A DNA stretch of 40,259 nucleotides from Candidatus Micrarchaeota archaeon (lineage in GTDB: Archaea > Micrarchaeota > Micrarchaeia > Micrarchaeales > CABMGC01), in NCBI GenBank assembly GCA_023256515.1, contig JAGDYD010000031.1:1-40259 (forward strand), in the 5' to 3' direction. The notes beneath the pieces were generated by a model, which did not search any database, was not told where the DNA came from, and was given only the letters and a program-made list of their open reading frames with translations. Below, one piece after another: positions 2,735 through 22,762 of this stretch. The number at the start of each line of letters is the position of its first letter. Position 1 is the first letter of the stretch. Made by a program: the position numbers and the translations under genes.

Positions 2735-2789
2735 AAAGGTTATTTTAATTGAAAAGTTAATAAAGGTTTAAGTCAGATAATTAATTAAT

Positions 2790-2862: not shown

Positions 2863-2877
2863 TAAAAATGTGGTTTA

Positions 2878-6081: not shown

Positions 6082-6085
6082 ATGC

Positions 6086-7588
6086 ATGGCCGAGAATGAA
6101 AAGGTATATGATTCTTATGAGCTTGACGCTCATGGCTTGAAAGTAAATGTAAGAATAGTAGACAAAGGGGATTTTGTACCTATTTACGAAGTAACTATGC
6201 CTGGTATAGGAGAGGCTACAAAGATACTTCTCCTTTCAGAAAGGCAGGAGCTTCTTTCCCTTGTACCAATAGACCCAACAAGGATAGAAGACAAAGAATA
6301 TGTTGCTGAGCTCACAAACAAGTATATAGAGGCTTCAAATATAATAATCGACAAGTATCTGCCAGGTACAAATAAAGAAATAAAAAAGATGCTTACTGCT
6401 TATATAATAAATATAATGCTCGGCCTAGGAGACCTAGAAGCACCTCTTGCTGATGAAAACCTTGAAGAAATTGCAGTAAATACTTCAAAAGAGCCTGTTT
6501 GGGTATTTCATAAAAAATATGGCTGGTGCAAAACAAATCTAGTAATACCTAGCGAGGAGATAATATACGATGACGCAGAGCAGATAGGAAGAAGAGTGGG
6601 CAGGCAGATAACAAATTTATCTCCTTTAATGGATGCAGAATTGCCAGACGGCTCAAGAGTAAACGCTACATTATACCCAATATCACAAAAAGGAAATACT
6701 ATAACAATAAGAAAATTCGGCAAAAACCCGTGGACTATGCCTGCTCTTGTTGCAAATGGCACAGTTTCTAGCTATCTCGCTTCTTTAATATGGATGAGCA
6801 TACAAAATGAAGTAAGTATACTAATCTCTGGAGGTACTGCAAGCGGTAAAACAAGTTTCTTGAATGCTATGAGCATATTCATACCACCAAACAGGAGAAT
6901 TATATCTGTAGAAGAAACAAGAGAGCTTACGTTGCCTGAATTCTTGCATTGGGTGCCTATGGTAACAAGGCAGCCGAATCCTGAAGGCAAAGGAGAGATT
7001 AAGCTATATGACCTCATGATAAATGCCCTCAGGCAAAGGCCAGATATAATGCTTGTAGGAGAAATTAGAACCAAGAGCGATGCGGAAACATTATTTGAAG
7101 CAATACACACAGGGCACTCTGTCTATGGAACAGTCCATGCCGATGACACGCAAGATACCATAGTAAGAATGACAAACCCACCTATAGACATACCTAAGCT
7201 GATGATAAATGCTATAGGCAGCATAGTTACCCTTTTCAGGCATAGAAGGTTGGGAATAAGAAGACTCTTAGAATTTGGAGAAGTCACAAGAACCGGAGAT
7301 GCTACGGTGCTTTGGAGGTGGAACCCAAGGCAAGACACATTTGTCCAAATAGGAGAAATGGCTAGGCTTGCAGATACAATAATGCTTTATGGAGGCTATA
7401 CAAGAAATGAGATGCTTGATGAGATAGAAGAAAAGAAGAAGATAATAGAGTGGATGGTCAAAAATAAAGTATTTGATGTAGACGCCACAGGTTATATAAT
7501 AGCAAACTATTACAAAGATAAAAACAGCGTACTAGATATAGTAAACAAAGATACGCCATACTCTAGTGAATTGTTCAAAAAGGTGTAA
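6086..7588 (+). CDS. Type IV filament assembly ATPase, FlaI/PilB/VirB11 (T2SSE) family
   Basis: It carries a Walker A motif (ILISGGTASGKTSFLNA), a Walker B/Asp box (RPDIMLVGEIRT) and a His box (GHSVYGTVHAD). The 500 aa length includes the N-terminal domain typical of archaeal FlaI-like ATPases. Confidence 0.9.
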   Translation: MAENEKVYDSYELDAHGLKVNVRIVDKGDFVPIYEVTMPGIGEATKILLLSERQELLSLVPIDPTRIEDKEYVAELTNKYIEASNIIIDKYLPGTNKEIKKMLTAYIINIMLGLGDLEAPLADENLEEIAVNTSKEPVWVFHKKYGWCKTNLVIPSEEIIYDDAEQIGRRVGRQITNLSPLMDAELPDGSRVNATLYPISQKGNTITIRKFGKNPWTMPALVANGTVSSYLASLIWMSIQNEVSILISGGTASGKTSFLNAMSIFIPPNRRIISVEETRELTLPEFLHWVPMVTRQPNPEGKGEIKLYDLMINALRQRPDIMLVGEIRTKSDAETLFEAIHTGHSVYGTVHADDTQDTIVRMTNPPIDIPKLMINAIGSIVTLFRHRRLGIRRLLEFGEVTRTGDATVLWRWNPRQDTFVQIGEMARLADTIMLYGGYTRNEMLDEIEEKKKIIEWMVKNKVFDVDATGYIIANYYKDKNSVLDIVNKDTPYSSELFKKV

Positions 7589-7590
7589 GT

Positions 7591-8160
7591 TTGAGTTTGG
7601 TAGAACTTAATGACCCAAAAATTTTTGAAGAGATTGAAAATTTGGAGAGACCTGAAAATATAATAGAGCTTGATATAGACAAAGCTCTCCAAAATAAGAT
7701 TGATTTTAAAGAATATGATTACAATGAAGCTTTGCTTTTGCTTAGGGGCTCAGAAGAAAAAGTTGAGCAGAAAGAGCAGGAGATAGTTCAAAAAGCACCG
7801 CAAAAAGAAGAGAATGAGCAAATCCTAAAAGCCACAAAAGAGATAAAAGAGATTGTAGGATCAGTTGGCAAAGAGTTTGAAAAAAGCATAAAGAGAGAAA
7901 CGCAGAGGATAAAAGGGGAGAAGCTTATACTTCCTACTTTGTCTTTGCAAGACCAGGTATCAGAATTAGAGAAGATAAGCGAAGGCATTGATGAAAACGT
8001 TTTCAATGAAGAGCAGAGGAAGATAATAAAGATTGAAGTCAGAGGCCTTAAAGACAAGATAAAAAATGAAAAAATAATGCCTTCTGATGAATTGCAAAGA
8101 TCTCTGGTTGCTCTTAGGAATCAGAAAGTTGAAGAAGTAATAAAAAAGATTACATGGTAA
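7591..8160 (+). CDS. Acidic coiled-coil protein of unknown function (TTG start)
   Basis: The open frame sits between the ATPase and the platform genes. There is no ATG until near its end. The TTG at 7591 is preceded by AGGTG (7581-7585), which lies inside the end of the ATPase gene. The product is E/K-rich. Confidence 0.5.
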   Translation: MSLVELNDPKIFEEIENLERPENIIELDIDKALQNKIDFKEYDYNEALLLLRGSEEKVEQKEQEIVQKAPQKEENEQILKATKEIKEIVGSVGKEFEKSIKRETQRIKGEKLILPTLSLQDQVSELEKISEGIDENVFNEEQRKIIKIEVRGLKDKIKNEKIMPSDELQRSLVALRNQKVEEVIKKITW

Positions 8161-8178
8161 ATATCTATAGGTTGTGAG

Positions 8179-9177
8179 ATGTTTGGTAAAAAGAAGTATG
8201 TTCAAAACAATACACAGCCCATAGGGTTTACTAAACAGAAGAGGTTTCTTTTCTTTAAAATAAGATCAAAGCCCATATACCCAGAACAAAATCGAGTGTC
8301 GGAAATACTCCAGCAGCAAGAGGGCAAAGAGGGCAAAAAAATCTCTAAATTCCAGCTTTATATAGCAAGCATAGCGGCAAAGCATAAAGGCTTGGAGCTT
8401 GCACTAAGGGACCAAGGAATAAAAGAGAGTGTCTACGATTTTATAAAGAAGATGCTAATAAATTCAATAATAATAAGCTCAATACTTTCTGTGGCTATTT
8501 TTGTAATGCTCATGCATTATTATTTCAGCATAGCGGAGAGTTTGATATTTGCTCTTGTGCTTGGAATTGCTTCTTTCCAAGTCTTCTTCAACAAATTTGT
8601 GCAATATCCAATAGACAGAAGTAAAAACGTAGGGAAAGAGATAGAAAGAGACATACTCTTTGCTGCAAGAGACCTTGTCATAAGCATGAGGTCAGGAATG
8701 CCCCTCTTCAATGCGCTCACCACAGTGAGCACGGGATATGGAGCAGCTAGCAAGGAGTTTGCAAAAATAGTAGAGCTTGTTCAGCTTGGAATGCCAATAG
8801 AGCAGGCAATAGATGAAGTGAGCAGCAAAAGTCAGTCAAAGACATTCAAAAGTTTAATGCTACAAGCATCAGTCAGCATAAAGGCTGGCGCAGACATAGT
8901 TGGCGCATTGCAAGGAGTTGTAGATGAAGTTATGCAAGAAAGAGTTATAGAGCTTAGGAGATATGGGCAAAGGCTGAATGCACTTGCTATGTTTTACATG
9001 CTTTTTGGAGTAATATTTCCAAGTATGGGTATAGCAGTAGCTGCAATACTTACTACATTCATAAGCATATTTACGGTTGATGAATCAACTCTTATATTCG
9101 CATTAGTAGGCATTTTATTCTTGCAGCTCATATTCCTTAACATTATGAGGTCCTCAAGGCCAACATTTGCAATGTGA
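8179..9177 (+). CDS. Type IV filament platform protein, single T2SSF domain (TadB/EpdJ-like half of FlaJ/PilC)
   Basis: The cytoplasmic T2SSF-type helical domain (ERDILFAARDLVISMRSGMPLFNALTTVSTGYG...MPIEQAIDEV) is bracketed by hydrophobic helices. The protein is 332 aa. Confidence 0.8.
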   Translation: MFGKKKYVQNNTQPIGFTKQKRFLFFKIRSKPIYPEQNRVSEILQQQEGKEGKKISKFQLYIASIAAKHKGLELALRDQGIKESVYDFIKKMLINSIIISSILSVAIFVMLMHYYFSIAESLIFALVLGIASFQVFFNKFVQYPIDRSKNVGKEIERDILFAARDLVISMRSGMPLFNALTTVSTGYGAASKEFAKIVELVQLGMPIEQAIDEVSSKSQSKTFKSLMLQASVSIKAGADIVGALQGVVDEVMQERVIELRRYGQRLNALAMFYMLFGVIFPSMGIAVAAILTTFISIFTVDESTLIFALVGILFLQLIFLNIMRSSRPTFAM

Positions 9178-9181
9178 TTGT

Positions 9182-10168
9182 ATGATATCATTTGAAAAAT
9201 TAGTTGCAAGGAATGTTGTAGTTTTTGTTTCCAGAGAACTTGACCTTGCAGGATCAAAAATGACAGTCAATAGATTCCTTGGAATAGCCATAGTTGGGGG
9301 CATATTAATTCTTACTATTGTCTCATATTCTCTCTTCTTCCTTAAATTCAATGCAGGTATAGCTGCTCTGGCAGGCATAGGCTCTGCTATAATGTATGAA
9401 ATAATTTTATACATGCTTCTAGAATTCAATATAGAAAAGAGAAAGAGCTTTGTGGAAAGTATACTGCCAGACTATCTTGAGATAGTGGCTGCAAATGTAA
9501 GGAGTGGAATCTCATTAGACAAAGCAATGGTTTTAGCAGCTAGGCCGGAATTCAAATATTTCAGCGAAGATGTAAAGCTAGTAAACAAGCAGCTATATGC
9601 TGGTTCTACATTGCAAAGCATGCTAAACAGCCTGGCAGATAAATATAGATCACTGCAGCTGAAGCACACTGTAAGAATGCTCATAGAAGCTATACAGTAT
9701 GGAGGAGGCATGACAGATTTGCTAAACCAAGTTGCAAAAGATATAAGGAACCAACAAATGATACAAAAAGAAATATCAGGCCAATTGTTCATGTACACAA
9801 TTTTCATAGCTTTTGCTGCTATAATGGGAGCACCTACACTTTATGCACTTACCACCAAAATGATGACAATAACAGATACGGTTTGGGCGGGAATACTGGC
9901 ACAAAACCCAGGAGGGCTTCCAACAACAGGCGTCTCTTTCTTAAGGCCAAGCCCACCAAAGATTACTATAGGCATGTATCAAGATTTTGCCCTCACTGCA
10001 GTAATATTGATATCTGGATTTGGAGCATTTATAGTATCTGCAATTTCAACTGGCTCTGTGATAAAAGGATTGAGATATTTGCCTATATTCATAGTGGTTG
10101 GCTTAGGAGTATTCTATGTCGTAGGTGCAGTTATAGGATCTATGTTTGCTAGTATAAGCGGAATATAG
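9182..10168 (+). CDS. Type IV filament platform protein, single T2SSF domain (TadC/EpdK-like second half)
   Basis: It has a T2SSF-type domain (LPDYLEIVAANVRSGISLDKAMVLAARPEF...) plus membrane helices. The ATG at 9182 lies 5 nt after the upstream stop. The track start at 9167 is a TTG inside the previous gene. Confidence 0.8.
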   Translation: MISFEKLVARNVVVFVSRELDLAGSKMTVNRFLGIAIVGGILILTIVSYSLFFLKFNAGIAALAGIGSAIMYEIILYMLLEFNIEKRKSFVESILPDYLEIVAANVRSGISLDKAMVLAARPEFKYFSEDVKLVNKQLYAGSTLQSMLNSLADKYRSLQLKHTVRMLIEAIQYGGGMTDLLNQVAKDIRNQQMIQKEISGQLFMYTIFIAFAAIMGAPTLYALTTKMMTITDTVWAGILAQNPGGLPTTGVSFLRPSPPKITIGMYQDFALTAVILISGFGAFIVSAISTGSVIKGLRYLPIFIVVGLGVFYVVGAVIGSMFASISGI

Positions 10169-10169
10169 A

Positions 10170-12830
10170 TCAACCATTTAGCCCAAATCCACTTTTTTCA
10201 TTTATTATTCCAATTATACCCATACCTGCATTAGGATAAGATCCTGAAATAGGAGAGTAATGAACATTGTATGCCGTAGCATTATTACCAATGCCACTAT
10301 AATCATTTGAATTCCCAAGCAGAGGATACCACAATACAAGATTCTGCAGATCTATAGGAGCACCTGCAATGCCATTTTTATAAATTGAATAAATTTGCTG
10401 CTTTGACAATGTCGTGTTGTAGAATTGATAATTAGCCATTTCTCCTTGGAAATAAGCCGCGCCATCCCCACAATTCGTATAATCAGAGGGGCCAAGAGGA
10501 TAATACATTTGAGATGTACCACCAGGTATGCTTCTGCTTCCTGTTCCTGAGTTCTTATAAACACCATTTATATAGCCTGAATAATTAAGAGAAACACCAT
10601 TGTATGATAAAGACATTACTATATTGGACCAAGAGTTTAATGGTATAGGACCAAGATTCACGCAACCCAAATTCCAGACACGAATATAAACATTACCATT
10701 TACCAGATCTATCCATGTATCATGCCAATTCGTATTTATAGAACTCTGCCCCAATTCATCAACTATATCACCATTTGGCGAAGAAGGATTTACCCATATT
10801 GAGATAGTTGCAGGCTGTATTGCATTATTCATGAATCCAAAGCCATTATTTTGTATTATATAACCAGTCCCGCTGAACCCAGCAACATCGAAGTTCTGCG
10901 AGACTTCAAGAGGCAATTTGCCAATATACAATGCAGATTTGCAGTTTGTACCACTTATGCAAGAAAGCGTTCCTGGCACAGGATAAGTTGCTGGTGTAGG
11001 TACAATATATATTGAATCTCTAGTATAGTTGAGCGGCGATGAATATGAAATTGAAACAGGTGTACCGTTGTCTCCAAATCCACTATAATCGTTCGCATTG
11101 CCATTTAGAGGCCACCAGCCGACTAAGCCAGCATTGCTTATAGGCAAACCGGCTATTCCTTCTTGATATAGATGCTGTATTTGTTGCCCAGAAAGTGATG
11201 TATTATAAATCTGAACATTTGCTATAGAGCCATTGAAGAAATTATTTGAATTATCGTTTCTACTTCCTATGTTTGTTGGACCAGAAGGCTGATTTATTGA
11301 ACCCGTAACTGTAGATTGATTTACTTTGTTTCCATTTACATAAATTGAGATATAGTTCCCATTATAAGTGCCTGTTATAAAATACCATTTATTTGTTTGA
11401 GAAAATGCGTGAGGTGCAGTTACAGGGCCATACCATGAACCACCGATATTAACCCAAAAGTCTCCCTCCATGTTATTATTGTTGTTTATTGCCAATACAA
11501 ATCCCCCGTTTTGATTTTCCTTTGAACTGACTATTGTCTCTCTAGGCCCATTTACATTTTTTGAAGAAGCAGGCATTATCCATGCAGATACTGTTACTGA
11601 ATACTGGCCAACATTTATATTGTTTGAGATTGTTATGTGGCTGTTTTGCCCATTGAAGTTTGCTGCTTGCCTATTCATGTTTTCAAATGTAAATATACCA
11701 TTTGGAGATATATCTCCAAAATTGCCAGACACCCTTTCACTATAAGAAGGTAAGAAAGGAGAAGCAAAATAGAAACCGTTTTGTATTGCACTTCTCAATC
11801 TGCTTATATCTAAAATATCCATGCCAGGACCATATAATAATACTTTTGCGCCGTTTGGAATTTGGTTTAATATGTTTGTCGAGCTTGAATAAACAAGCCA
11901 CGGTATATTTGGAGGAGAGCTTATACTATTTATTGAATATGTTACAAGACCGCCAAACCTATTTGCAGCATTGCATGTTCCATTTGTTATGTAAACCGCA
12001 TTTGGAGTTGCAAGTATCACAGACTTGTTCAAAGGTGCTGTTTGAGCCCATTTTGGAATATTGCTCGATAAGCTCGTGCAAGTTACCCCGCTAGGGACAT
12101 GCAACACTATACCATATATAAAAGCATTTTGGCTTGAGTTACCATATGCTGCATATGCATTGCCTACCACACTTGAAAGATTGCTTATAGAAGAAAAGCG
12201 TATTTCCCTTTGTATTCCTTGCTGCGCGTAGAACAAATCAAGCGTGCCATTTAAAGGAATTGAAGCATAAACAGGTATGGAATAATTATATATTCCAGAT
12301 TCTGTAGAAACTGAAACATTTTCTAAAAAGTAAATCGAGAGATTATAAGGCCCGTTTTGATATATGATCGGATTTGACTCAGTAATTTCCACACTTATTG
12401 GAGAAGGCTTTAGATTTTTTATTATGGAAAGATTGTAAGACAAAAATGTTGAATTACCCATGTATGATGCAATGATATTTGCTGCTATTGAATTTCTAGG
12501 AACGTTTGGAAGTGTACCATTTACTATAAGATCGCCAAGGTACAGGCTTAGGTTAGATACTAAGTTGTCTTTCCTAAGGCTCGCATTATATTCATATTTA
12601 GTCAAAGTTGACAAAGCCCTTGAAAGAGACTCTTGGGCAAAAGAGCTTGCCATGGATTTTAAAGCAGATGCATAATTTATTGATTGAGATACAGATGAGG
12701 CGCTTTGCTGTATTTTGTTGTAGCTTATATTTAGCATTATAAATACGAAAAGCTCAGCTATCATCAGCGTGAATAGCACAACTACCAATATCGTCATTAG
12801 GAATCCTCTTTTTCTTTTTATCAATGCCAT
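10170..12830 (-). CDS. Giant pilin-like surface protein: class III signal-like N-terminus, about 380-aa N-domain, two Laminin_G_3 (ConA-like lectin) modules
   Basis: The N-terminus is MALIKRKRGFLMTILVVVLFTLMIAELFVF. Two LamG module ends are present: FFNGSIANVQIYNTSLSGQQIQHLYQEGIAGLPISNAGLVGWWPLNGNANDYSG and FQGEMANYQFYNTTLSKQQIYSIYKNGIAGAPIDLQNLVLWYPLLGNSNDYSG. There are ten N-x-S/T sequons in the first roughly 200 aa. It is the last gene of the - strand operon. Confidence 0.75.
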   Translation of the reverse strand: MALIKRKRGFLMTILVVVLFTLMIAELFVFIMLNISYNKIQQSASSVSQSINYASALKSMASSFAQESLSRALSTLTKYEYNASLRKDNLVSNLSLYLGDLIVNGTLPNVPRNSIAANIIASYMGNSTFLSYNLSIIKNLKPSPISVEITESNPIIYQNGPYNLSIYFLENVSVSTESGIYNYSIPVYASIPLNGTLDLFYAQQGIQREIRFSSISNLSSVVGNAYAAYGNSSQNAFIYGIVLHVPSGVTCTSLSSNIPKWAQTAPLNKSVILATPNAVYITNGTCNAANRFGGLVTYSINSISSPPNIPWLVYSSSTNILNQIPNGAKVLLYGPGMDILDISRLRSAIQNGFYFASPFLPSYSERVSGNFGDISPNGIFTFENMNRQAANFNGQNSHITISNNINVGQYSVTVSAWIMPASSKNVNGPRETIVSSKENQNGGFVLAINNNNNMEGDFWVNIGGSWYGPVTAPHAFSQTNKWYFITGTYNGNYISIYVNGNKVNQSTVTGSINQPSGPTNIGSRNDNSNNFFNGSIANVQIYNTSLSGQQIQHLYQEGIAGLPISNAGLVGWWPLNGNANDYSGFGDNGTPVSISYSSPLNYTRDSIYIVPTPATYPVPGTLSCISGTNCKSALYIGKLPLEVSQNFDVAGFSGTGYIIQNNGFGFMNNAIQPATISIWVNPSSPNGDIVDELGQSSINTNWHDTWIDLVNGNVYIRVWNLGCVNLGPIPLNSWSNIVMSLSYNGVSLNYSGYINGVYKNSGTGSRSIPGGTSQMYYPLGPSDYTNCGDGAAYFQGEMANYQFYNTTLSKQQIYSIYKNGIAGAPIDLQNLVLWYPLLGNSNDYSGIGNNATAYNVHYSPISGSYPNAGMGIIGIINEKSGFGLNG
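11114..11165. repeat. 52-nt exact direct repeat, copy 1 (LamG module junction)
   Basis: accagccgactaagccagcattgcttataggcaaaccggctattccttcttg is identical base for base to 16820-16871. On the - strand it encodes QEGIAGLPISNAGLVGW. Confidence 0.9.
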
Positions 12831-14980
12831 GCTACAACACTCACATTGTATATATAAGTTGAATTAAACTGAGAATTATAAATAGGAAGCACTGTGCTTG
12901 CTTTGCTAACAATATGTGAATTGTAAAGGCCTGGAGAGAGAGGGGCATTTCTAAGTATTGATTGACAAGGATTTGAAGAATAGCCAGAGTTGTTAAGGTT
13001 ATATACATCAGATATGCAACCATCTGGATACCATGCGACTAGTCCCGTATTTATTGGAGAACCGCCAGGACCCTCTAGATACAATTGTCCAACCTGCTGA
13101 GGGCTTAAAGCTGTGCTATATATTTGTATGTTTGATATAAGACCATTAAATGTATAACTGCCCATTGGCAAGTAACCAATATAAAATGGGCTTACCCCAT
13201 GTGCTATTGGGGCTTTCTGCTTTAGCGAAGAAACTAAATTACCATTAACAAAGAGGTTTAGCTGGTCGGTTACTTGATTATATTCTGCTACTATATGATA
13301 CCATTGATCTAAGCTTAATTTTGCCCCCACTCTTGAATTTGGGGCACTCATATTGTTTGTAAATATCAGCACATAGTTTGAAGAAAGGTTTGATGATTGA
13401 TAAACATATGGATAGCCAGAACTAAGATTCTGCTGGCCAATTATGCCGTTATTTGGATACCATGAATATGGATATATCCAAAAAGACCATGAATAGCTTG
13501 GAGTATCAAGATCTTGATTAGAGATATAACCATACGTATTGACATAATATGTCGAGCCTTTAATAGATGTGCTATTTACTCCTTTTCCTGAAACAATTAT
13601 TGTATAATTATACATAGGATATATAGAGCTAGCCAGTGATTCTGCGCAGGATGTTTGATTATTTACGTATAAGTACGCTACTGCATATATAATTGAGGTA
13701 TCTCCATTTATGCCAGGCATATTACAGCCGCCAAATGCTATCACCTTATTGCCAGATATTGCAAACAACTTACCATATGCTATAGCCAAGTAAGGCGAAA
13801 ATATAGTTTTTGGTGGCAAGCCAAAAACCCAAAGCAAATTGCCATTTTGCAGATTTTGAGCAGTTAAGTTACCAGACCAAACAGAATATACAATATTGCC
13901 GCCAACAACGGGCTTGGTATTTGATGGAGCTGTACCAAAAGGCATAGGCATGCTCCATAGCGTAGAGCCTGAAGGGCTAAGTGCAAGAATAGAGCTTGAG
14001 CCTTGGTATAAGACTATTCCTTTATAAGCATTTACACCTTGTATTGTAGAGCCAGCACTTATGCCACCAAATAGCAATGTACCGTTTATGTAGCTTGCAT
14101 TTGCATTGCTCCCAGATCCATAATAAAATACACTTCCAAGAGAAGCAAGATTGCTTAGGCTTGCTTGGGCTTTTATAGGATAGAGGAGCTCTGCATTATC
14201 CTGAGAAATAACTATTGTTCCCAGATAGTTTGATGATGTTTTGAAAGCTAGTGAGCCTTCTGCTGCTGCAAATGATGTAGGCTCTTGCCCTATGTTTAAA
14301 GACCATGCTATATTGCCATTATTAGGGTATAATGCGTATGCATAATAATTGCTTGCGCCAAATATGAGTTTGCCATCATATACATATATAGGCGTTCCAA
14401 GCTGCACCTGAGATCCAGCAATTGTAACTATATTTGAGCTCCAAGCCAAATTGCCGTTCAAAGCATTAAGCGCCGTTATGTTTGTAGAATTAGCATAAAT
14501 TACCAAATTATTGTATATCGCAGGCGTAGACTGTATAGGGGTTTGTGCATTTTTTATCCATGATTTAGTCCCAGTAGTGGCATTAACTGCATACAAATAC
14601 TGGCCAGATCCAAAATATATATTGCCATAATCTGCAACTATGCCAGTCTGTATATTGCTCTGAGCAGAGAATTCAAAAGAAACAAATGGATAAATCGGCC
14701 CATAAGAAGAGCCAGCATCGCCTTCGCTATTTTTCCATTGCTGTGGCCAATATGAAGAATAGCCATTGCTTAAGCTTGCTATTTGGTATGCCAGCTTATT
14801 GCTTTGACTTATACTCGATATATTTGCATTCTCAAGCTGACTGAGTATAGAAGAGGCTTCGCTATACCTAAAAGAGTATGAAACTTGTGGGACATAGAAG
14901 AAATATAGCATTATAGATATGCTTGCAACTGCTATTATCAAAGCAAACAGAGCATCTAATGTGAAAACAACACCTTTCAT
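12821..14980 (-). CDS. Pilin-like surface protein: class III signal-like N-terminus, PQQ-type beta-propeller, one Laminin_G_3 module
   Basis: The N-terminus is MKGVVFTLDALFALIIAVASISIMLYFF. Repeated propeller-blade motifs are present (YLYAVNATTGTKSWIK, ITALNALNGNLAWSS, YAYALYPNNGNIAWSL, ILALSPSGSTLWSM, LTAQNLQNGNLLWVF). The C-terminal LamG module ends in FNGLISNIQIYSTALSPQQVGQLYLEGPGGSPINTGLVAWYPDG. Confidence 0.75.
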   Translation of the reverse strand: MKGVVFTLDALFALIIAVASISIMLYFFYVPQVSYSFRYSEASSILSQLENANISSISQSNKLAYQIASLSNGYSSYWPQQWKNSEGDAGSSYGPIYPFVSFEFSAQSNIQTGIVADYGNIYFGSGQYLYAVNATTGTKSWIKNAQTPIQSTPAIYNNLVIYANSTNITALNALNGNLAWSSNIVTIAGSQVQLGTPIYVYDGKLIFGASNYYAYALYPNNGNIAWSLNIGQEPTSFAAAEGSLAFKTSSNYLGTIVISQDNAELLYPIKAQASLSNLASLGSVFYYGSGSNANASYINGTLLFGGISAGSTIQGVNAYKGIVLYQGSSSILALSPSGSTLWSMPMPFGTAPSNTKPVVGGNIVYSVWSGNLTAQNLQNGNLLWVFGLPPKTIFSPYLAIAYGKLFAISGNKVIAFGGCNMPGINGDTSIIYAVAYLYVNNQTSCAESLASSIYPMYNYTIIVSGKGVNSTSIKGSTYYVNTYGYISNQDLDTPSYSWSFWIYPYSWYPNNGIIGQQNLSSGYPYVYQSSNLSSNYVLIFTNNMSAPNSRVGAKLSLDQWYHIVAEYNQVTDQLNLFVNGNLVSSLKQKAPIAHGVSPFYIGYLPMGSYTFNGLISNIQIYSTALSPQQVGQLYLEGPGGSPINTGLVAWYPDGCISDVYNLNNSGYSSNPCQSILRNAPLSPGLYNSHIVSKASTVLPIYNSQFNSTYIYNVSVVAWH

Positions 14981-15507
14981 TATTCAACACCAAATGATGT
15001 ATTAGTCCAAACCATTACCTGCATTGTAGAAGGAACATTGTTTATTATTATTGGCTTATTTACAACATAAATGCTAAGCGCCCTATTGGTATATGGATTG
15101 GCGCCTATTCCAAATTTTATACCTTGATAATTTACAACTATATAATAATCATAGCTTACGCCCATCGCTTGCTTAGTAGCTTGGTAATTCGCATTTGCCA
15201 TGCTCTCCAATGTTGAAAGCTTCTGCATAGATAATTGACCATTTGAGCCAAGCAAGCCTATTGATATGTTGGACCAGGATAGTGGATTGTTTATGCTTAC
15301 TAAAGAGCTCCAAGAAGCAGGATTCCCTGGAGTAAGCAACCTATTTGCCAAAGCCTGGGCTTCAAGCTGCATAGAACCTGCACTATAGCCATAAGAAAGA
15401 GAGAATTGATTGTTTATACTATACCATACAAAAGCGAGTATGGTAATGGCAAATCCAAATATAACCATGGCAAATATTACATCAAATGACCAAAATTGAA
15501 GCTTCAT
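14980..15507 (-). CDS. Small pilin-like protein (minor pilin candidate)
   Basis: The N-terminus MKLQFWSFDVIFAMVIFGFAITILAFVWYS is followed by a roughly 140-aa Ser/Asn/Gly-rich, beta-rich region. It overlaps both neighbours (ATGA upstream, TAATG downstream). Confidence 0.55.
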   Translation of the reverse strand: MKLQFWSFDVIFAMVIFGFAITILAFVWYSINNQFSLSYGYSAGSMQLEAQALANRLLTPGNPASWSSLVSINNPLSWSNISIGLLGSNGQLSMQKLSTLESMANANYQATKQAMGVSYDYYIVVNYQGIKFGIGANPYTNRALSIYVVNKPIIINNVPSTMQVMVWTNTSFGVE

Positions 15508-18500
15508 GGCAAAACACCCATATCAACTTCAGCGCTCGCATAGGCAGGATACTTATTATTATAAAGCTCCATCATTTGCTTAGGTGATAATGCTTTGTTG
15601 TATATCTGAAGGTTTGAAATAGAGCCATTTAAACCTTGGAATGATTGGCCGCCAAGATAGCCTATGTTAAAGCCAATTCCCATATAGTGCGTAGCTGCAT
15701 TATTTTCTGTTTGTGAAATGCCAGTTTGATTCATAGAGTTAACATACAATGTTGCTGCACTTCCTTTTGAAAGAACTGCGCCAACAAATACCCATGTATG
15801 GAGAGGAACTTGAATATTAGAAGAAAAAATTATGCCATTAGATGAAAGAGCCAAATGTGTATTGTTTATGAAAAGCATAAGTGTATTAGATGGGCTACCT
15901 TCGCTATATATAACAGGCGAATTTGAATATGAATTTAGGTAAATCATAGACGTAATAGTAAAATTACTCTTGCCGTTTAGAGGGGCATAGGATGAATTGT
16001 ATATATAGCTATTCTGCCCATTAAACTCTGCTCCTGAGCCACCGAAAGAATAATATGATGGCGAAAATGATGTCTGCTGCTGAGTATATGTAACATTATA
16101 AGGAATACCGTTGTTGCCATTCCCACTATAGTCTCTTGTATTGCCAAGCAATGGATACCAAGCAACAAGGCTAGAAGTCAAAGGAAGCCCATAAGGGCCC
16201 TCTTGGTATATTTGACTTACTTGTGAGTTTGTAAGATTTGTTGAGTAGAATTGAACATTTGCTATATTGCCAAAGAATTGATTTCCTGAAGGAGAATAAG
16301 CGCTTGTCAAGCCTATTTGAAAAGTACCAGGGGCAGCGTTGCCCAGTAGCTTGCCAACCTTCTTTGTCCATACCTGCTTGCCATTAAGATAAACAGTATA
16401 ATTTGCCCCGTTGTATGTTGCACCAACAAGGTTCCATGTATAGAGAGGAAAATATGAATTAACCCCTAGCCAGCCGCTCGTATTATAGCCATTTATCATT
16501 ATTTGAGTTGTGCCGCCAGTAGCAACCTCTATTGCTCCATTATCGCCAGCGCTTGTAGCTAAAACTCTGCTATATGATTCACTTGCGGTTGGAAATATCC
16601 ATGCAAAATAAGAAAACCTCGAATAATTTACCGGAACTATAGAAGGCACATTTATGAAAGAATCTGGTGTTGGATTGCCGCCAGGATTAAATGTTGCCAC
16701 ATATATGTTTGAATAGTTTCCAGAAGATGTTCCACTTGCTTTAACCATTTTCAAATTTCCGTATATTGCGCCATTATTTCCGCTACCGCTATAATCATTT
16801 GCATCCCCATCTAATGGGTACCAGCCGACTAAGCCAGCATTGCTTATAGGCAAACCGGCTATTCCTTCTTGGTAGAGCTGCCTAACTTGGCTAAAGCTTA
16901 GGGAAGAAGAATAAAATTGCACATTTGCTATTGAGCCATTGAAAAATGAGATTTGACTATTTAAAGTACCGGCGCCTATGCTCCAATTATCTGGAGTGCA
17001 TGTTTGTGGAGTTATTGAAATTGATCCCACCTCTACACCATCCAAAAACAATGTCTCTTGGTTGGATGTCTGGCTTAAAGCAACAAAATGCCATTTGTCA
17101 TCTGCAACAAAATAATTTGTATTAAATGCAAAAGTGCCTGTAGATGAAGAATCGCCGCCCGCCAAGTAGCCTTGTGGGGTAACATATATTACAGGAGAGT
17201 AGCAGCTTGCTATTGAAAGAGGCTGCGCATTTCCATTCCAGATTACCATACCACCTTTTGAAGTCTTGAACCATGTAGAAACAGTAAGTATTGAATTTGC
17301 TTGCGGTAATCCTTGTGGTAAGTTAATATATGAAGATGCGCCATCGAAATAGGCAGAGAAGCTTGGCGCATTCCAAAATGTGTTTTCCATAAACCCATTA
17401 ATCGATGAATTTGAGCTATATGCTATAGCACCATAGCCAAGATTTAAAGGATACCACGAAACAAGATTGCTTGATGTTGTGTAATTGCCGTTAAGTGCTG
17501 TTGCTTTAACTATGGCTGCGCCTGGTGCATTTACAAAATTAAGAAATGATGTCGCAACCCCATTTTGATTGGTCAGATTAGACTGCGGATCCATTGGCCC
17601 ATATGAAGAAGCAAAATTTACTAATGTGTTTGGCATAGGCTTGCCATTTGCATTTAGCACCTTTGCAAAGAATTGATATACAGTAGAGTATTCAACTGGA
17701 CCATAAGAAACACCATTATTGCCCCTACCACTATAATCATTTGCATTGCCATTTAGAGGCCACCATGCGATTAGATTATTTGTGCTTATAGGTGCACCAT
17801 CTATGCCTTCTTGGTAGATCTCTTTTAGCTGAAGAGGAGACAAAGAAGTATTATAAAATTGGACATTTGCTATAGAGCCATTGAATGCGTTGCTATCGCA
17901 TTGTGCAAATTGTGTCCCTATGGTTGCCTGTGACGATCCTGAATAGCTATTTGAATTTGTGGTTGTCGAGTTAACCCCATTTATTTCCCAATAATAATTT
18001 GGATAATTTACAGATACAGCAACAAAATACCATTTATTGTTAAATATAGAATATGGAAGCAAAGCACCACTTCCTGTATCTGCAGAAGAACATCTATGCA
18101 ATACTAAGCATGTATTGGGCAAGCAACTATTTTGCAAGCCAAATGCTTGGTAGCCAGAAAGCGAAAAGAGTGCAGTAGTCCAAGAATGCGAGAAGTTTTG
18201 AACGCTGCTCGGCCTAACCCACATTGTTATTGTGAAAGGATAATTTGTTCCAGATATAGGAACATTAGCCAATATAAATGTCTTTGAATTGTAGTTGCTG
18301 CTAGACCAAGGGCCACTAAATTCAGCAGCATAGATTTTTTCGCTTGAAAGAAATATTGATTTTGCTTCATTGCTTTGAGTGGCACATTGATAATCTAAAC
18401 ATATATTGCCGAATGAGTTTTGTATATACAAAGTCCCATTAGAATTTGGCAGTATATAGATATTTGAAGATCCTGGAGCAAGATAGGAAGGGCTTGAGAC

Positions 18501-18833
18501 AACATTTTTTGCCATGCTATATGCAACTGCCTTTATTACTTGCTTACCAACTTTTGCTTGCAATATAACTATGCCGTTTTTTGTTATTGTAATGTTATAT
18601 GGTATTATCCCTATAAAATTAGCTATAGAGACTGTTCCTGAATAGCCATTTCCTGCTTGCAGCGCTGCATCTATGCCACTCGCTATGCTTTGGGCTTGCA
18701 ATTGTAGCTGCGAAAATGTTTGGTCGCTTAAACCAAGGGATCTTTCGCTTGATATCAAAGCAAACATAAAGATGAATACAAGTAGCACAAATGAGAACAC
18801 TATCAGGAACTCAAGTGAAAGCTGAAGCTTCAT
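15504..18833 (-). CDS. Giant pilin-like surface protein: class III signal-like N-terminus, pilin-like head, four Laminin_G_3 modules and an Ig-like insert
   Basis: The ATG at 18833 gives MKLQLSLEFLIVFSFVLLVFIFMF; the track start at 18842 is an upstream GTG. Four module ends are present: FNGSIANVQFYNTSLSPLQLKEIYQEGI, FFNGSIANVQFYSSSLSFSQVRQLYQEGI, FFGNIANVQFYSTNLTNSQVSQIYQEGP and LNGSISNLQIYNKALSPKQMMELYNN. The openers are WWPLNGNANDYSGRGNNG, WYPLDGDANDYSGSGNNG and WYPLLGNTRDYSGNGNNG. An Ig-like stretch is KVLNANGKPMPNTLVNFASSYGP...AAIVKATALNG. Confidence 0.8.
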   Translation of the reverse strand: MKLQLSLEFLIVFSFVLLVFIFMFALISSERSLGLSDQTFSQLQLQAQSIASGIDAALQAGNGYSGTVSIANFIGIIPYNITITKNGIVILQAKVGKQVIKAVAYSMAKNVVSSPSYLAPGSSNIYILPNSNGTLYIQNSFGNICLDYQCATQSNEAKSIFLSSEKIYAAEFSGPWSSSNYNSKTFILANVPISGTNYPFTITMWVRPSSVQNFSHSWTTALFSLSGYQAFGLQNSCLPNTCLVLHRCSSADTGSGALLPYSIFNNKWYFVAVSVNYPNYYWEINGVNSTTTNSNSYSGSSQATIGTQFAQCDSNAFNGSIANVQFYNTSLSPLQLKEIYQEGIDGAPISTNNLIAWWPLNGNANDYSGRGNNGVSYGPVEYSTVYQFFAKVLNANGKPMPNTLVNFASSYGPMDPQSNLTNQNGVATSFLNFVNAPGAAIVKATALNGNYTTSSNLVSWYPLNLGYGAIAYSSNSSINGFMENTFWNAPSFSAYFDGASSYINLPQGLPQANSILTVSTWFKTSKGGMVIWNGNAQPLSIASCYSPVIYVTPQGYLAGGDSSSTGTFAFNTNYFVADDKWHFVALSQTSNQETLFLDGVEVGSISITPQTCTPDNWSIGAGTLNSQISFFNGSIANVQFYSSSLSFSQVRQLYQEGIAGLPISNAGLVGWYPLDGDANDYSGSGNNGAIYGNLKMVKASGTSSGNYSNIYVATFNPGGNPTPDSFINVPSIVPVNYSRFSYFAWIFPTASESYSRVLATSAGDNGAIEVATGGTTQIMINGYNTSGWLGVNSYFPLYTWNLVGATYNGANYTVYLNGKQVWTKKVGKLLGNAAPGTFQIGLTSAYSPSGNQFFGNIANVQFYSTNLTNSQVSQIYQEGPYGLPLTSSLVAWYPLLGNTRDYSGNGNNGIPYNVTYTQQQTSFSPSYYSFGGSGAEFNGQNSYIYNSSYAPLNGKSNFTITSMIYLNSYSNSPVIYSEGSPSNTLMLFINNTHLALSSNGIIFSSNIQVPLHTWVFVGAVLSKGSAATLYVNSMNQTGISQTENNAATHYMGIGFNIGYLGGQSFQGLNGSISNLQIYNKALSPKQMMELYNNKYPAYASAEVDMGVLP
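16820..16871. repeat. 52-nt exact direct repeat, copy 2 (LamG module junction)
   Basis: It is identical to 11114-11165. The flanking bases differ on both sides. A further 23-nt identical block, gcattgccatttagaggccacca, links 11095-11117 and 17743-17765 and encodes WWPLNGNA. Confidence 0.9.
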
Positions 18834-18843
18834 CAAAAACACA

Positions 18844-19299
18844 TCATGTCAACGGAGTAATATAAACACAAGGCACATTTGGCGCAGTAGGGCATGAACT
18901 AGTTGCTGTCAAGTTTACTAGATATGTGCCTGGCGAACTTATACTGCCTAAATTGCCACTCACATTTACAGGGGTGTATGCAGTAACAGAGCTTAGCCCA
19001 GAAAATGACCTTACCATAAATATTATTAGATGCCCTACAGAGCCTGTCTGAGAGCCAACATATATGTATTGGACGCCTGGTGGCACTTCTATCTGTATAA
19101 CCTGCTTTGCTGGCGGACCTTCACTACCAACAAAAGAGGCTATGCTTGCTATTTTTGATGCTGCTTGCTGAGACTCAATTGCAGCTAAAGAAGAGCTAGA
19201 GCTCGCTATTTGCATAAAAGCGATTACAACTATTGGAAGCAGTATAGCTAAGCCAAAAGCCAAGGTTATTAAGAGCTCAAAGCTAGACTGCCCTTTCAT
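18844..19299 (-). CDS. Type IV pilin-like protein (best major-subunit candidate), Epd-type class III signal peptide
   Basis: The N-terminus is MKGQSSFELLITLAFGLAILLPIVVIAF. It has a KG/Q junction with Q at +1 and E at +5, then a hydrophobic helix. The 151 aa length is pilin-sized. Its ATG overlaps the stop of the CBS gene (ATGA). Confidence 0.75.
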   Translation of the reverse strand: MKGQSSFELLITLAFGLAILLPIVVIAFMQIASSSSSLAAIESQQAASKIASIASFVGSEGPPAKQVIQIEVPPGVQYIYVGSQTGSVGHLIIFMVRSFSGLSSVTAYTPVNVSGNLGSISSPGTYLVNLTATSSCPTAPNVPCVYITPLT

Positions 19300-20429
19300 A
19301 CCATCACAACATTGTTGCCCTTGAACTGGGCAACAATTAGTTCTTTCCTATCCTTCACCTCATTATAAAGCTTTTCAACTATGTCTTTTAATACACTGCT
19401 AATGCTATAGCCTGTTGAGGCTGCTGCTACAGAGCCGCCTTGCTTAAGAACAACCTTGCCATGCATTTCATAATTTCTTACTTTTGACCTTTTCACATTT
19501 AAAGTTACGTAATCAACTTTTATTTTGCTGAATCTATTGATCTTGTTTACCATATCGTTGAGCTCTGCCCTTATATCTTCTTCATATTCTTTAGTATAGT
19601 TATCCAAGCCAGATATTATTATTTTATTTTCTTGCTCGCTACTAAATGATGCGATCAAGGCAAAAATATCCCTAACTGTTATTATACCAACAGGCTTGTC
19701 GTTTTTTGTAACTACAAGAGATGATATACCTCTCTCTACAAACACTCTTATTGCTTCTTCAAGCGGAGCATCTTGCTCTATAGAGAGAACACTTCTTTGG
19801 CATACGCTGCCAACTGGGGTATTGCTTATCGTATAGTAATAATTGCGCCTTTGTGGTGATCTTTCAGTAGCCTTAGCAAACATCTCTATTATATCCCTCA
19901 GCGTTATAATGCCATATAGAGAGCCATTTTTCATCACTATAAGCCTATTTATTTTGTTTTTCTCCATGGCACTTTTTGCCTGGGCTATATTTGCATTTGC
20001 ATCTATACCTATGGCTGGAGAAGTCATTGCATTCTCTACTGTATATTTAGAAACCAAATGCAAAGACAATATTGCTTTCAATAGCTCGCTTCTTTTTACT
20101 ATACCTTTTATCTCACCACTGTCAAAATAAGGCAAAGCTTTTACTCCTTCGAAATAGAAGTACAATATTGCTTTTTCTATTGTAGTGGACATGTCTAATA
20201 CTGGCACTTTTTTTGCAAACTTCCCTATAGACTGCCTCTTGTTCAGCTTTAAAACCCCTTTTCTTGCTAAAGTTCTATCATCGACAATACCATAGTATTC
20301 ACCATTCTTTCTTACTACTACTGCAGTGTATTCTTTTACTTTGCTCATTGCCTCTGTAACAGGATCTTTATATTCATAAAAAAGGGTCTCTGAAACAAAT
20401 TCGCTTGGAATAGGTTCTATAGCTCTCAT
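19296..20429 (-). CDS. Four-CBS (two Bateman modules) protein with a C-terminal HPF/RaiA-like (Ribosomal_S30AE-like) domain
   Basis: Four CBS-type repeats are present (..YGIVDDRTLAR.., ..IKGIVKRSELLKA.., ..LYGIITLRDIIEM.., ..PVGIITVRDIFAL..). The C-terminal roughly 100 aa are IIISGLDNYTKEYEEDIRAELNDMVNKINRFSKIKVDYVTLNVKRSKVRNYEMHGKVVLKQGGSVAAASTGYSISSVLKDIVEKLYNEVKDRKE. This matches the beta-alpha-beta-beta-beta-alpha pattern of bacterial HPF by eye. I used the ATG at 20429; the track start at 20441 is a TTG. Confidence 0.65.
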   Translation of the reverse strand: MRAIEPIPSEFVSETLFYEYKDPVTEAMSKVKEYTAVVVRKNGEYYGIVDDRTLARKGVLKLNKRQSIGKFAKKVPVLDMSTTIEKAILYFYFEGVKALPYFDSGEIKGIVKRSELLKAILSLHLVSKYTVENAMTSPAIGIDANANIAQAKSAMEKNKINRLIVMKNGSLYGIITLRDIIEMFAKATERSPQRRNYYYTISNTPVGSVCQRSVLSIEQDAPLEEAIRVFVERGISSLVVTKNDKPVGIITVRDIFALIASFSSEQENKIIISGLDNYTKEYEEDIRAELNDMVNKINRFSKIKVDYVTLNVKRSKVRNYEMHGKVVLKQGGSVAAASTGYSISSVLKDIVEKLYNEVKDRKELIVAQFKGNNVVMV

Positions 20430-20523
20430 CCTTATCCCCAAATCAAATTTAGATTAAAAAATTAAATACCTTCCTTACCTAAAATATAAAGAGTTAAATT
20501 ATTTAAAAATGCAAATTTTTGAT

Positions 20524-20594
20524 GCCAGGATGGCAGATCGGCTATGCGGCCGCCTGCAGAGCGGCATAGGGGGGTTCGACTCCCTCTCCTGGCT
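20524..20594 (+). tRNA. tRNA-Cys (anticodon GCA)
   Basis: The acceptor stem is GCCAGGA/TCCTGGC. The anticodon stem is GCCGC/GCGGC with loop CTGCAGA. The T arm is GGGGG-TTCGACT-CCCTC and the discriminator is T. Confidence 0.85.
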
Positions 20595-20704: not shown

Positions 20705-21139
20705 TTATACATCAACAAGTACAAATATTTTCCAAAACTTTCCTTTTTCTACTTTCAAATCATGTGGTGTTACTGCTTTTATCTCTAAAAGATGGTAATC
20801 CTTTTCAGCTTCTTTGAAGAAAAGAGTCCCTCTAAGCTTTATTTTTTTGCCTTCCTCCAAACTTTCTACTTTGAAATAATATGCATTAAGGGCTTTTTCG
20901 TCTATTTTTGAAAGAAGATCTTGAAGCGTGAACCAAACAATCTCTTCTTTAGTATCTGCAGACTCTCTTATCTTGATCGTTTTAGGCTTTGCTTTAAGCT
21001 TTTCTAGCTTCTTTACATCAAGCATGATTCCGAGCATTGCCTTTGCTGCGTTTTCTAATGCCTCTTTAAAGCTGTTTCCATAGGCTACAAATCTAACATC
21101 TGCTGTGTGTGGCAAATATCTAAACCTTACCCTTGGCAT
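20705..21139 (-). CDS. Archease
   Basis: MPRVRFRYLPHTADVRFVAYGNSFKEALENAAKAMLGIM... matches the archease N-terminal signature (F.yL.HTADi.f.ayG.t.eEafenaA.Am). The C-terminal ..IKAVTPHDLKV.. strand is also present. The protein is 144 aa. Confidence 0.9.
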   Translation of the reverse strand: MPRVRFRYLPHTADVRFVAYGNSFKEALENAAKAMLGIMLDVKKLEKLKAKPKTIKIRESADTKEEIVWFTLQDLLSKIDEKALNAYYFKVESLEEGKKIKLRGTLFFKEAEKDYHLLEIKAVTPHDLKVEKGKFWKIFVLVDV

Positions 21140-21262: not shown

Positions 21263-22762
21263 ATGGAGAATAAGAATATCCTTGCTGCTGTTTTTTTCAC
21301 TTCAGTTATAATAATGCTAATAAATCCATTCCTTTCTGCGCCTAGTAGCATAAGCGATACTGATCCTTCTACCTATATAATAGTTCCAACCATAATGCTT
21401 CCTTTGTTTTCTGCTTTTATTTTCAAAAATAAGATAAATGTTGAAAGAAAGGCAAAAGATATTTACTTTGGTTTTCTTTTGTTTGCCCTTTTCATCATTT
21501 TTACCGCTTATCTTCATTACTTTTTCTCTTTCTTTTTCATGAGCTTTAGGCTATATATGCTAATATTTCCTCTTGCCATCGCTAGCTTAGTAATAACCAT
21601 ATTTGGATTTAGAAGCATAAATTCGTTCAAAGCAATAATAATATATTCGATTTTCGCTTCTCCGATACTCCTTGCCCCAATATTTTCCTTAAATCAAGCA
21701 TTTGCAGAAATAAATGCAAAGATTGTATATTATTTGCTGCATTTTATTAACAGCAGCATTTCTTTCCAAGCTCCAATAAGCATCTATTATAAAAATTATA
21801 TAATAGGCATAGGAGAAAGCTGCGTAGGCATCGGTGCGCTTATAGGCTTAATAATGTTTCTAATCCCTGTTGCTTACCTTTTCAATGGAAAAGCAAGCAG
21901 AAAAGTTATTTGGGTAATATCTGGATTTGCATTAATGCTTTTGCTCAATATATTGAGGATGTTTGCTATTGCTTTTGCTTGGTTCTATTATGGGCCAAAC
22001 TCTACAATATCTATATTACATAGCTTTGCCGGCATGACAATATTCTACTTGACCATAATAATAATGATATTAATTTCAGGCTTATTTGAACTTAAGATTC
22101 CAAAATTTGATTTAAGGAAAAATGAAAAGAATAGAGGCAAAAGGCCAAAAACAGTCTATATGCTGATACCTATAATATATGCATTGATCTACTTTTCTGC
22201 TTCTATCAGCTTCCAGAACTATCTTTCAATTTCACCTTATTTGCAATATAGCAAAGTGCCACTTAGTGGCCAGCCATTTGCTAATTTTGTCTCCACGAAT
22301 GTAAATACGAGCGGTTTTCATTCTATTGCCTATACCTTTTCAAACTCTTCTGAAATAATATTGCTAACAAATAGCACATTCAACTCTAGCAATCCTATTG
22401 CAATATTTATAACTGAACCAAACAAACAGGAAGAGAAGGCCCTCTTCTCTAATATGAGCATATATGCCTATTCAAAATTCTCTGGTTTGAATGGTGTGAA
22501 TATAGAAATTTATAAAGTTGGCTACAATGGAAGCACATATTTCCTTGCCATAGAGCAGTTGCCATATGTGCAAGGCAGCAGTTACAATATAATGGGAGAA
22601 TACGGCATATTTCCTGAAAAAGCTGGAGAAATTAACATGAGCTGCAGCTATGACTCTTTTTACAGTACGTTCTATACCTTATTTGACCTTGGATTTTATA
22701 ATAGCACTATTTCAAAGCAGCTAGAAAATGTGTATTGTTTAAACCAGAAGATATTCAGGTAA
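21263..22762 (+). CDS. Exosortase/archaeosortase-family membrane protein with an extra C-terminal (EpsI-like?) extracytoplasmic domain
   Basis: The polytopic N-terminal roughly 290 aa carry candidate Cys/Arg/His catalytic motifs in the expected order: IGIGESCVGIGALIGL, LLLNILRMFAIAF and ILHSFAGMTIFYL. One further TM helix and a roughly 190-aa Asn/Ser-rich domain follow. Confidence 0.6.
   Translation: MENKNILAAVFFTSVIIMLINPFLSAPSSISDTDPSTYIIVPTIMLPLFSAFIFKNKINVERKAKDIYFGFLLFALFIIFTAYLHYFFSFFFMSFRLYMLIFPLAIASLVITIFGFRSINSFKAIIIYSIFASPILLAPIFSLNQAFAEINAKIVYYLLHFINSSISFQAPISIYYKNYIIGIGESCVGIGALIGLIMFLIPVAYLFNGKASRKVIWVISGFALMLLLNILRMFAIAFAWFYYGPNSTISILHSFAGMTIFYLTIIIMILISGLFELKIPKFDLRKNEKNRGKRPKTVYMLIPIIYALIYFSASISFQNYLSISPYLQYSKVPLSGQPFANFVSTNVNTSGFHSIAYTFSNSSEIILLTNSTFNSSNPIAIFITEPNKQEEKALFSNMSIYAYSKFSGLNGVNIEIYKVGYNGSTYFLAIEQLPYVQGSSYNIMGEYGIFPEKAGEINMSCSYDSFYSTFYTLFDLGFYNSTISKQLENVYCLNQKIFR

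Follow-up and report, generated by a model that had tools for sequence, protein, structure and literature searches.

A probable HibA/AHA-type ribosome hibernation factor encoded at the head of a pilin operon in a Micrarchaeota archaeon

Introduction

The closest described relatives of the gene analyzed here are HibA of Pyrococcus abyssi (PAB0961; Madru et al., Nat Commun 2026, PMC13324472; Protein Data Bank (PDB) entries 9SR9-9SRF and 9T7H) and AHA of Haloferax volcanii (HVO_2384; Souza et al., EMBO J 2026, PMC13728122), both of which have been established as archaeal ribosome hibernation factors through cryo-electron microscopy (cryo-EM), knock-outs and isothermal titration calorimetry. HibA is described as a protein of 392 amino acids (aa), with four CBS domains in residues 1-269 and an HPF/RaiA-like domain in residues 270-392 (PMC13324472). 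In both systems the HPF-like domain is reported to fill the 30S mRNA/tRNA channel, while the CBS tetrad fills the 50S tRNA sites and places a loop in the peptidyl-transferase centre (PTC) (PMC13324472; PMC13728122). Here we consider a gene for a 377-aa protein, hereafter the hibA-like gene, that lies in a 40,259-nucleotide (nt) stretch of DNA from a Candidatus Micrarchaeota archaeon (assembly GCA_023256515.1, contig JAGDYD010000031.1, positions 1 to 40,259 of the forward strand), which was analyzed whole and is referred to as the window. We propose that this gene is a member of the same family, and we note that it stands first in an operon of pilin-like genes.

The published accounts also describe ligands and phenotypes. 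Dissociation constants reported for HibA-CM are 12 uM for AMP, 65 uM for ADP and 113 uM for ATP, with GTP not being bound (PMC13324472), and the AHA structure is reported to hold two AMP molecules between CBS3 and CBS4 (PMC13728122). Knock-outs recover more slowly from stationary phase and lose 70S ribosomes (PMC13324472; PMC13728122). HibA is reported in 47% of archaeal genomes (PMC13324472), and the source files of the AHA study contain Micrarchaeota/Micrarchaeia sequences, some of them labelled AHA, with 390 mentions in the HPF alignment file (PMC13728122), which places the Micrarchaeota inside the published AHA family. The fusion of four CBS domains to an HPF domain is therefore already known, and the expectation of an earlier note on this DNA, made from the sequence alone, that such a fusion would be unusual does not stand. 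With the protein family, its ribosome-bound structure and its wide distribution all published in 2026, what is new here is the conserved joining of the gene to a pilin operon, a modest new observation.

Domain architecture and family assignment

We suggest, with a probability that we put at roughly 0.85, that the hibA-like gene encodes the ortholog, in the Micrarchaeota, of the archaeal ribosome hibernation factor HibA/AHA. A Pfam scan of the 377-aa protein at E<=0.1 returns four CBS domains and no other family, leaving residues 264-377 uncovered; the 16 matches of an NCBIfam scan are all CBS-driven and all far under their cutoffs. In the full-length structural model (mean predicted local distance difference test (pLDDT) 90.1, predicted template modelling score (pTM) 0.86) the tetrad, a lower-confidence loop and an HPF-like domain follow one another in that order. 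A profile built from 12 close relatives matches PDB chain 9sr9_H in a single collinear stretch, residues 19-351 against 18-361, at E 5.9e-23; according to the data-availability statement of PMC13324472, 9SR9 is HibA-ATP and its sibling entries are 70S-HibA complexes. The two proteins are alike in having four N-terminal CBS domains and a C-terminal HPF/RaiA-like domain of b-a-b-b-b-a topology, in their length (377 vs 392 aa) and in the position of the domain boundary, at about residue 265-270. An in-frame TTG 12 nt upstream of the ATG, which would add four residues, is unsupported: each of the 12 homologs in the alignment has its first residue at the Met of MRA...

The tetrad itself appears in the full-length model as four b-a-b-b-a-like units. 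Its best Foldseek matches are SriA/B (9znf_4, 7.7e-18), Sso3205 with AMP (3ddj), MJ1225, SriD, Dri and AMPK gamma, at E values of 1e-16 to 1e-18, and the AHA paper gives the same pattern of structural matches for its own CBS tetrad (PMC13728122). The window protein thus shares with AHA both the order of four CBS domains and an HPF domain and the AMPK-gamma-like character of the tetrad. Structurally the tetrad is closest to those of SriA-D of Methanosarcina acetivorans and Dri of Pyrobaculum calidifontis (9znf_4, 9zng_7 and 9e6q_3); unlike Sri, which has four CBS domains, and Dri, which has two tetrads, both reported to be without an HPF domain (PMC13728122), the window protein has one. GIIT.RD-type motifs can be read in CBS3 (residues 172-179) and CBS4 (residues 248-254) of the 377-aa protein. 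We take such CBS motifs to be ribose-binding.

A further feature of the family is the extended loop after CBS3. In the window protein this loop aligns, in the match of the family profile to 9sr9_H, with HibA residues ~188-207, and the PTC loop of P. abyssi HibA is given as residues 190-207 (PMC13324472); the loop thus occupies the same alignment position in both proteins. In the full-length model it is without secondary structure and of lower pLDDT (blocks of 72 and 64). It differs from the HibA loop in being about two residues shorter and in having a conserved ER.P motif of its own, in which, among 43 full-length relatives, 39 have R190 and 33 have P192.

The C-terminal tail carries the second half of the argument. 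An AlphaFold model of the tail, made with a 30-sequence domain alignment, has a pLDDT of 87.2 and a pTM of 0.77, with its elements in the order E6-10, H17-35, E42-52, E56-65, E70-77 and H80-107. When this model was compared with the PDB by Foldseek, all 31 of the matches at E<=0.001 were hibernation factors (HPF, RaiA, YfiA, pY, RafH or MPY), with probability 1.00; the top match is 6h4n_x, E. coli HPF in the 100S ribosome (E 1.2e-5, template modelling (TM) score 0.70/0.82), and the first unrelated chain comes at E 0.01 and probability 0.35. Against Pfam at E<=10, the tail alone finds a single family, PF02482 (Ribosomal_S30AE), over profile positions 11-85 of 88 at E 0.021. Individually, 17 of 54 aligned family members match PF02482 at E<=0.01 (best 1.3e-10) and 49 of 54 match CBS, and L066, a relative that belongs to a different family of the class, reaches 28.6 bits, above the cutoff of 23.7. 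The tail is basic (pI 9.05), as is the median of 27 relatives (also 9.05). In fold and topology it resembles the 30S-binding domain of bacterial HPF/RaiA (YfiA) and plastid pY (PF02482), most closely E. coli HPF (6h4n), spinach pY, P. urativorans RaiA and V. cholerae HPF. It differs from these in its sequence, with 8-20% identity and a score under the Pfam threshold, and in being joined to a CBS tetrad, where the others stand alone or bear a dimerisation domain; its C-terminal helix (H80-107) is also longer than that of bacterial HPF, as is likewise reported for AHA (PMC13728122).

The earlier note had read the protein as two Bateman modules followed by a C-terminal domain of about 100 aa, and the four CBS domains, the 114-aa tail and the residues that it quoted are all present in the translation. 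It had likened the tail to HPF/RaiA by eye and named the lack of a structural match to S30AE/HPF as what would overturn the likeness, and the structural search gave the opposite result. Its broader suggestion of an archaeal translation-silencing factor that combines adenine-nucleotide-sensing CBS domains with an HPF/RaiA-like domain agrees in kind with HibA/AHA, whose family features were found in every case in which they were looked for, and we regard it as the probable function by analogy with these relatives.

The number of gene copies also speaks for the assignment. The genome to which the window belongs (86.65% complete) contains one PF02482-like site, which is the hibA-like gene. In the Micrarchaeota phylum, one match per genome was found in 113 of 201 genomes (a tally that includes two genomes flagged as unpublished); in the family of the window 34 of 35 genomes have it, and in the sister family 56 of 56. 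A phmmer search with the tail against 1.84 billion representatives gave 52 proteins at E<=0.001, and 41 of these are 366-399 aa long and match at the C-terminus. We also considered a stand-alone HPF form, represented by proteins of 131, 149 and 156 aa (P0036, P0037 and P0050), and rejected it: their N-termini carry the end of CBS4 in the alignment, and the likely cause of their shortness is that contig ends cut off the gene calls. The sequence of P0036 is the same as that of the C-terminus of the L030 protein.

Several observations weigh against the assignment to HibA/AHA. The PF02482 score of the tail, 16.0 bits (15.6 in the genome scan), is below the gathering cutoff of 23.7. A single-sequence phmmer search of the tail against the PDB did not return HPF, giving only SPT16 and ACE at chance level (E 1.3-1.7), and a tail-only profile gave marginal results against PDB sequences, with 10 matches at E<=1 of which four are HPF-type (E 0.063-0.82) and the remainder are two eIF5B-like proteins (0.055 and 0.072), three SPT16 and one PRTFDC1. 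HibA's C-terminal domain was not recovered at E<=1 by this profile, and in this respect the tail is very divergent from HibA, while the score of the family profile against 9sr9_H stems mostly from the CBS part. Because the tail's own score is below the cutoff and some of its relatives match, its link to PF02482 is transitive and structural rather than direct. Finally, a pure hibernation role leaves unexplained why the gene is joined to the pilin operon throughout the order.

Should the assignment be correct, the mode of action can be sketched by homology to the solved complexes. The C-terminal HPF/RaiA-like domain would occupy the mRNA/tRNA channel of the 30S subunit, while the N-terminal CBS tetrad would dock on the 50S subunit, with its long CBS3 loop reaching into the PTC. 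This tetrad would bind adenine nucleotides, AMP best, and at low energy 70S ribosomes would be kept inactive and protected; for the window protein we assume the role in recovery delay and 70S loss that is deduced from knock-outs of its relatives. The positions of AMP at CBS3/CBS4 and of loop 3 in the PTC come from cryo-EM in the case of AHA (PMC13728122), whereas in the window protein they are put forward by homology. In practical terms, proteins annotated in these genomes as "CBS domain-containing protein" or "predicted transcriptional regulator" would probably be better named HibA/AHA-type ribosome hibernation factors.

Linkage to a downstream pilin-like gene

The gene in the window heads a pilin operon (Table 1), a context that the main text on HibA (PMC13324472) does not mention. 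It stands first in the minus-strand arm of pilin-like genes, as the order of the genes indicates and as the earlier note had stated, and the overlap of its stop codon with the start of the first pilin gene, also described there, can be read directly from the minus strand. The same 4-nt overlap is found in the close relatives L001-L004 and L006-L008. The N-terminus of the 151-aa open reading frame (ORF) downstream is presumably a class III (prepilin) signal.

How widely this arrangement is kept was assessed in 49 loci, made up of the 30 best matches of the phylum scan and 20 picked loci of the sister family, less one locus from an unpublished genome; the sample is non-random. A pilin-type signal, defined as K/R-x-Q-S-S-[FL]-E-L-L plus a hydrophobic run, lies 4-51 nt past the hibA-like stop in the family of the window, where it is present in 27 of 27 genomes (13 genera, counting the window), and 16-49 nt past it in the sister family, where it is present in 20 of 22 genomes (11 genera). 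Relative to the end of the hibA-like stop codon, the predicted pilin starts lie between 40 nt before and 28 nt after. The exceptions are L041, where a different pilin-like protein with a LamG domain follows the hibA-like gene, and L055, where 1.6 kb separate the hibA-like gene from the pilin-like gene downstream. The upstream side served as a control: its most frequent neighbour, archease, which is also that of the window, is present in only 6 of the 49 genomes, and most upstream neighbours are unique. Clustering the longest downstream frames by BLAST had given a pilin in 39 of 49, an undercount due to the choice of spurious long frames in GC-richer genomes, and the motif count supersedes it. 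The linkage of hibA-like and pilin genes is real and strongly conserved across two families of the order. The counts do not represent independent events, since the genomes are related.

Outside the order, 20 regions were inspected, and tblastn with the window tail re-found the domain in 13 of them; in the other seven (L058, L065, L067, L069-L072) this search gave no match or E>0.3, and these were left out of the comparison. Two regions belong to a third family and have, at +23 and +34 nt, a small ORF that, beyond the signal peptide, shows homology to the pilin of the window (E 5e-9 and 2e-8). In three regions of another family of the class (f6; L056, L063 and L064) the hibA-like gene overlaps a large downstream ORF by 4-13 nt, which in L056 (2922-4247) and L063 (1130-2485) is a fusion of ThiD (phosphomethylpyrimidine kinase) and ThiN according to Pfam; tight packing of the hibA-like gene with its downstream neighbour is therefore not specific to pilins. 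No pilin-like ORF was seen directly downstream in the remaining eight regions, where the motif used is narrow and variants may escape it.

We found no report of this linkage. The words "pilin", "operon" and "synteny" are absent from the main texts of PMC13324472 and PMC13728122, as are "pili" and "genomic context" from the main text of the former and "pilin" from one text supplement; the PDF supplements of the former may bear on the matter, and its distribution figures (Supplementary Figs. 15-16) may already cover the Micrarchaeota. A literature search combining Micrarchaeota, pili and hibernation returned no paper. Of the earlier note's statement that the operon context would be unusual, the part that concerns the context holds, in that it is real and strongly conserved.

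The signals around the junction allow more than one mode of expression. The 3' end of the 16S rRNA of this genome reads ...GATCACCTCA, so that a Shine-Dalgarno sequence is expected to read GAGGTGATC; a GTGAT pentamer just before the pilin start may act as such a sequence, and together with the 4-nt overlap it is compatible with coupled translation. At the same time, TTTATAAT, about 62 nt before the pilin ATG and inside the 3' end of the hibA-like gene, is compatible with an internal promoter.

Table 1. Position of the hibA-like gene, its parts and its neighbours in the 40,259-nt window
Feature	Position	Strand	Remarks
hibA/AHA-like gene	19296..20429	minus	377 aa + stop; ATG start; four-CBS tetrad, then HPF/RaiA-like domain; from ORF and translation
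CBS tetrad, two Bateman modules (residues 1-263)	19641..20429	minus	Four CBS matches in Pfam (E 1.1e-38; 131.8 bits)
Long loop following CBS3 (residues ~185-204, ...AKATERSPQRRNYYYTISN...)	19818..19877	minus	Positional equivalent of HibA "PTC loop" / AHA "loop 3"
HPF/RaiA-like domain (residues 264-377, 114 aa)	19299..19640	minus	AF2 model b-a-b-b-b-a
GTGAT, Shine-Dalgarno-like pentamer	19303..19307	minus	3 nt before pilin ATG, within the last codons of the hibA-like gene
ATGA overlap	19296..19299	minus	hibA-like stop TGA 19298..19296 overlaps pilin ATG 19299..19297; strand reads ...GTG ATG GTA TGA AAG GGC...
151-aa pilin-like gene (MKGQSSFELLITLAFGLAILLPIVV...)	18844..19299	minus	ORF; no Pfam or NCBIfam family; conserved downstream partner
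Remainder of subunit operon	10170..18842	minus	1112-, 175-, 719- and 886-aa proteins; hydrophobic pilin-like N-termini
AT-rich spacer	20430..20523	.	Between hibA-like start and divergent tRNA-Cys; presumed operon promoter region
T2SSE-type ATPase	6086-7588	plus	Pfam T2SSE 5e-33
189-aa ORF	within 6086..10168	plus	One of the convergent assembly genes
Two T2SSF-type platform proteins	8179-9177, 9167-10168	plus	Pfam T2SSF 3.8e-15, 1e-15
tRNA-Cys (GCA)	20524-20594	plus	Divergent from hibA-like gene
Archease gene	20705-21139	minus	PF01951 E 4.7e-25

Alternative explanations and significance

The most economical reading of the locus is that an abundant, constitutively made hibernation factor shares a strong promoter with a pilin. 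The hibA-like gene would then be the first cistron of the pilin operon, overlapping a small, probably major, pilin gene. A shared, constitutive and strong promoter fits what is published of the family, since AHA levels are reported to be largely constant between growth phases (PMC13728122) and HibA abundance is reported to be similar to that of ribosomal proteins (PMC13324472).

A more far-reaching possibility, which we consider unlikely, is that the hibernation factor is functionally tied to the pilus, so that dormancy and attachment would form one regulatory unit in which a single transcript, perhaps with coupled translation, would supply host-detached, starved cells with both pilus subunits and a ribosome-silencing factor. 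Direct binding of the two products to each other is not to be expected, one being a cytosolic ribosome factor and the other a secreted pilin. The conservation of the pair speaks for it: the small pilin-like gene lies within ~50 nt of the stop and often overlaps it in all of the first family and in 20 of the 22 sister-family genomes, in 13 and 11 genera, whereas the commonest upstream neighbour reaches just 6 of 49; the pair recurs with a homologous pilin in the third family; and the ATGA overlap is accompanied by the Shine-Dalgarno-like GTGAT, the overlaps leaving no intergenic space for a promoter. A weak lead comes from the AHA knock-out proteomics, where Dataset EV1 lists PilA5 (log2 ratio -2.67) and PilA6 (-0.91) as significantly changed (PMC13728122). 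However, gene order alone is no proof, the compared genomes being compact (about 0.7-1 Mb) and related and the counts not independent; the pair is not seen in the other families of the class, f6 having ThiD/ThiN downstream; and the candidate internal promoter before the pilin ATG would allow separate transcription.

Were co-regulation to be the case, a hibernation factor would long have been locked into the first position of the subunit operon of a host-attachment pilus, in one order and at least part of a third family, on one transcript and perhaps with coupled translation, a scenario that we offer tentatively. Energy starvation would then be wired to host-seeking in an obligate symbiont, the locus would be a first example of a hibernation factor placed within an operon for a surface filament, and it would give access to the question of how DPANN archaea pass between the attached and the detached state. 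What draws attention to the locus in any event is that an obligate, energy-dependent symbiont keeps a dormancy factor tied to a pilus operon, the pilus probably contacting the host, while the genes upstream are shuffled.

It could also be supposed, as the earlier note had done in its alternative, that the HPF fold has been reused in a regulator with a CBS sensor that serves pilin synthesis or pilus assembly alone and has no general role in hibernation. The conserved first position in the pilin operon and the sequence divergence of the HPF-like domain would agree with this, as would the automatic name "predicted transcriptional regulator" that JGI gives to relatives and the mention in a TFF preprint (10.64898/2026.04.22.720090), where it is not identified further, of a CBS-domain protein that adjoins subsystem 4F loci in Halobacteria. 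We hold this to be improbable, and the idea finds no direct support beyond gene order. The homology to HibA is collinear over the full length and includes the position of the PTC loop, and the domain is basic, as expected of a binder of rRNA. The gene is the sole HPF-like gene in the genome, at one copy per genome across the order; a change of job would therefore leave the lineage without any HibA/HPF. A regulator model of the HhpR type (NF053603) was considered and rejected, its match covering residues 209-260 only and scoring 30 bits vs a cutoff of 520. Least probable by far, and in our view negligible, is a generic CBS protein with an unrelated alpha/beta tail, ACT-like or similar, whose likeness to HPF arose by chance, as the sub-threshold Pfam score and the marginal PDB sequence matches might suggest; the uniformly hibernation-factor Foldseek matches at E<=0.001 (TM up to 0.82, nothing else comparable), the 17 of 54 relatives that match PF02482 and the one that does so above the cutoff all stand against it.

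Filament locus, flanking genes and minor observations

The hibA-like gene lies at one end of a complete, convergent type-IV-filament locus (window positions 4882-20441). The three large proteins of the subunit operon (1112, 719 and 886 aa) carry LamG domains (Laminin_G_3, E 2.3e-52, 5.2e-21 and 1.2e-38), and the 719-aa protein also has PQQ_2, a PQQ/BamB-like beta-propeller.

Two genes upstream of the subunit operon, at 21263-22762 on the plus strand, a membrane protein of 499 aa is encoded whose exosortase/archaeosortase domain matches PF09721 at E 8.7e-19 and TIGR04178 with a score above the cutoff. A homolog is also found near the locus in L002 and L003. On the other side of the locus are three consecutive TrkA_N (RCK) ORFs (2878-4823, plus strand), of which the second and third (3304-4083 and 4008-4823) overlap by 76 nt; the overlap may reflect a mis-set start or a frameshift.

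A last observation concerns L076 (G000:C6), where positions 1167-3142 match the 16S rRNA model over its positions 1-1478 with 1346.5 bits. As this match spans 1976 nt vs 1478 model positions, the gene is longer than the model by about 500 nt, and an intron or a large insertion could account for the surplus.

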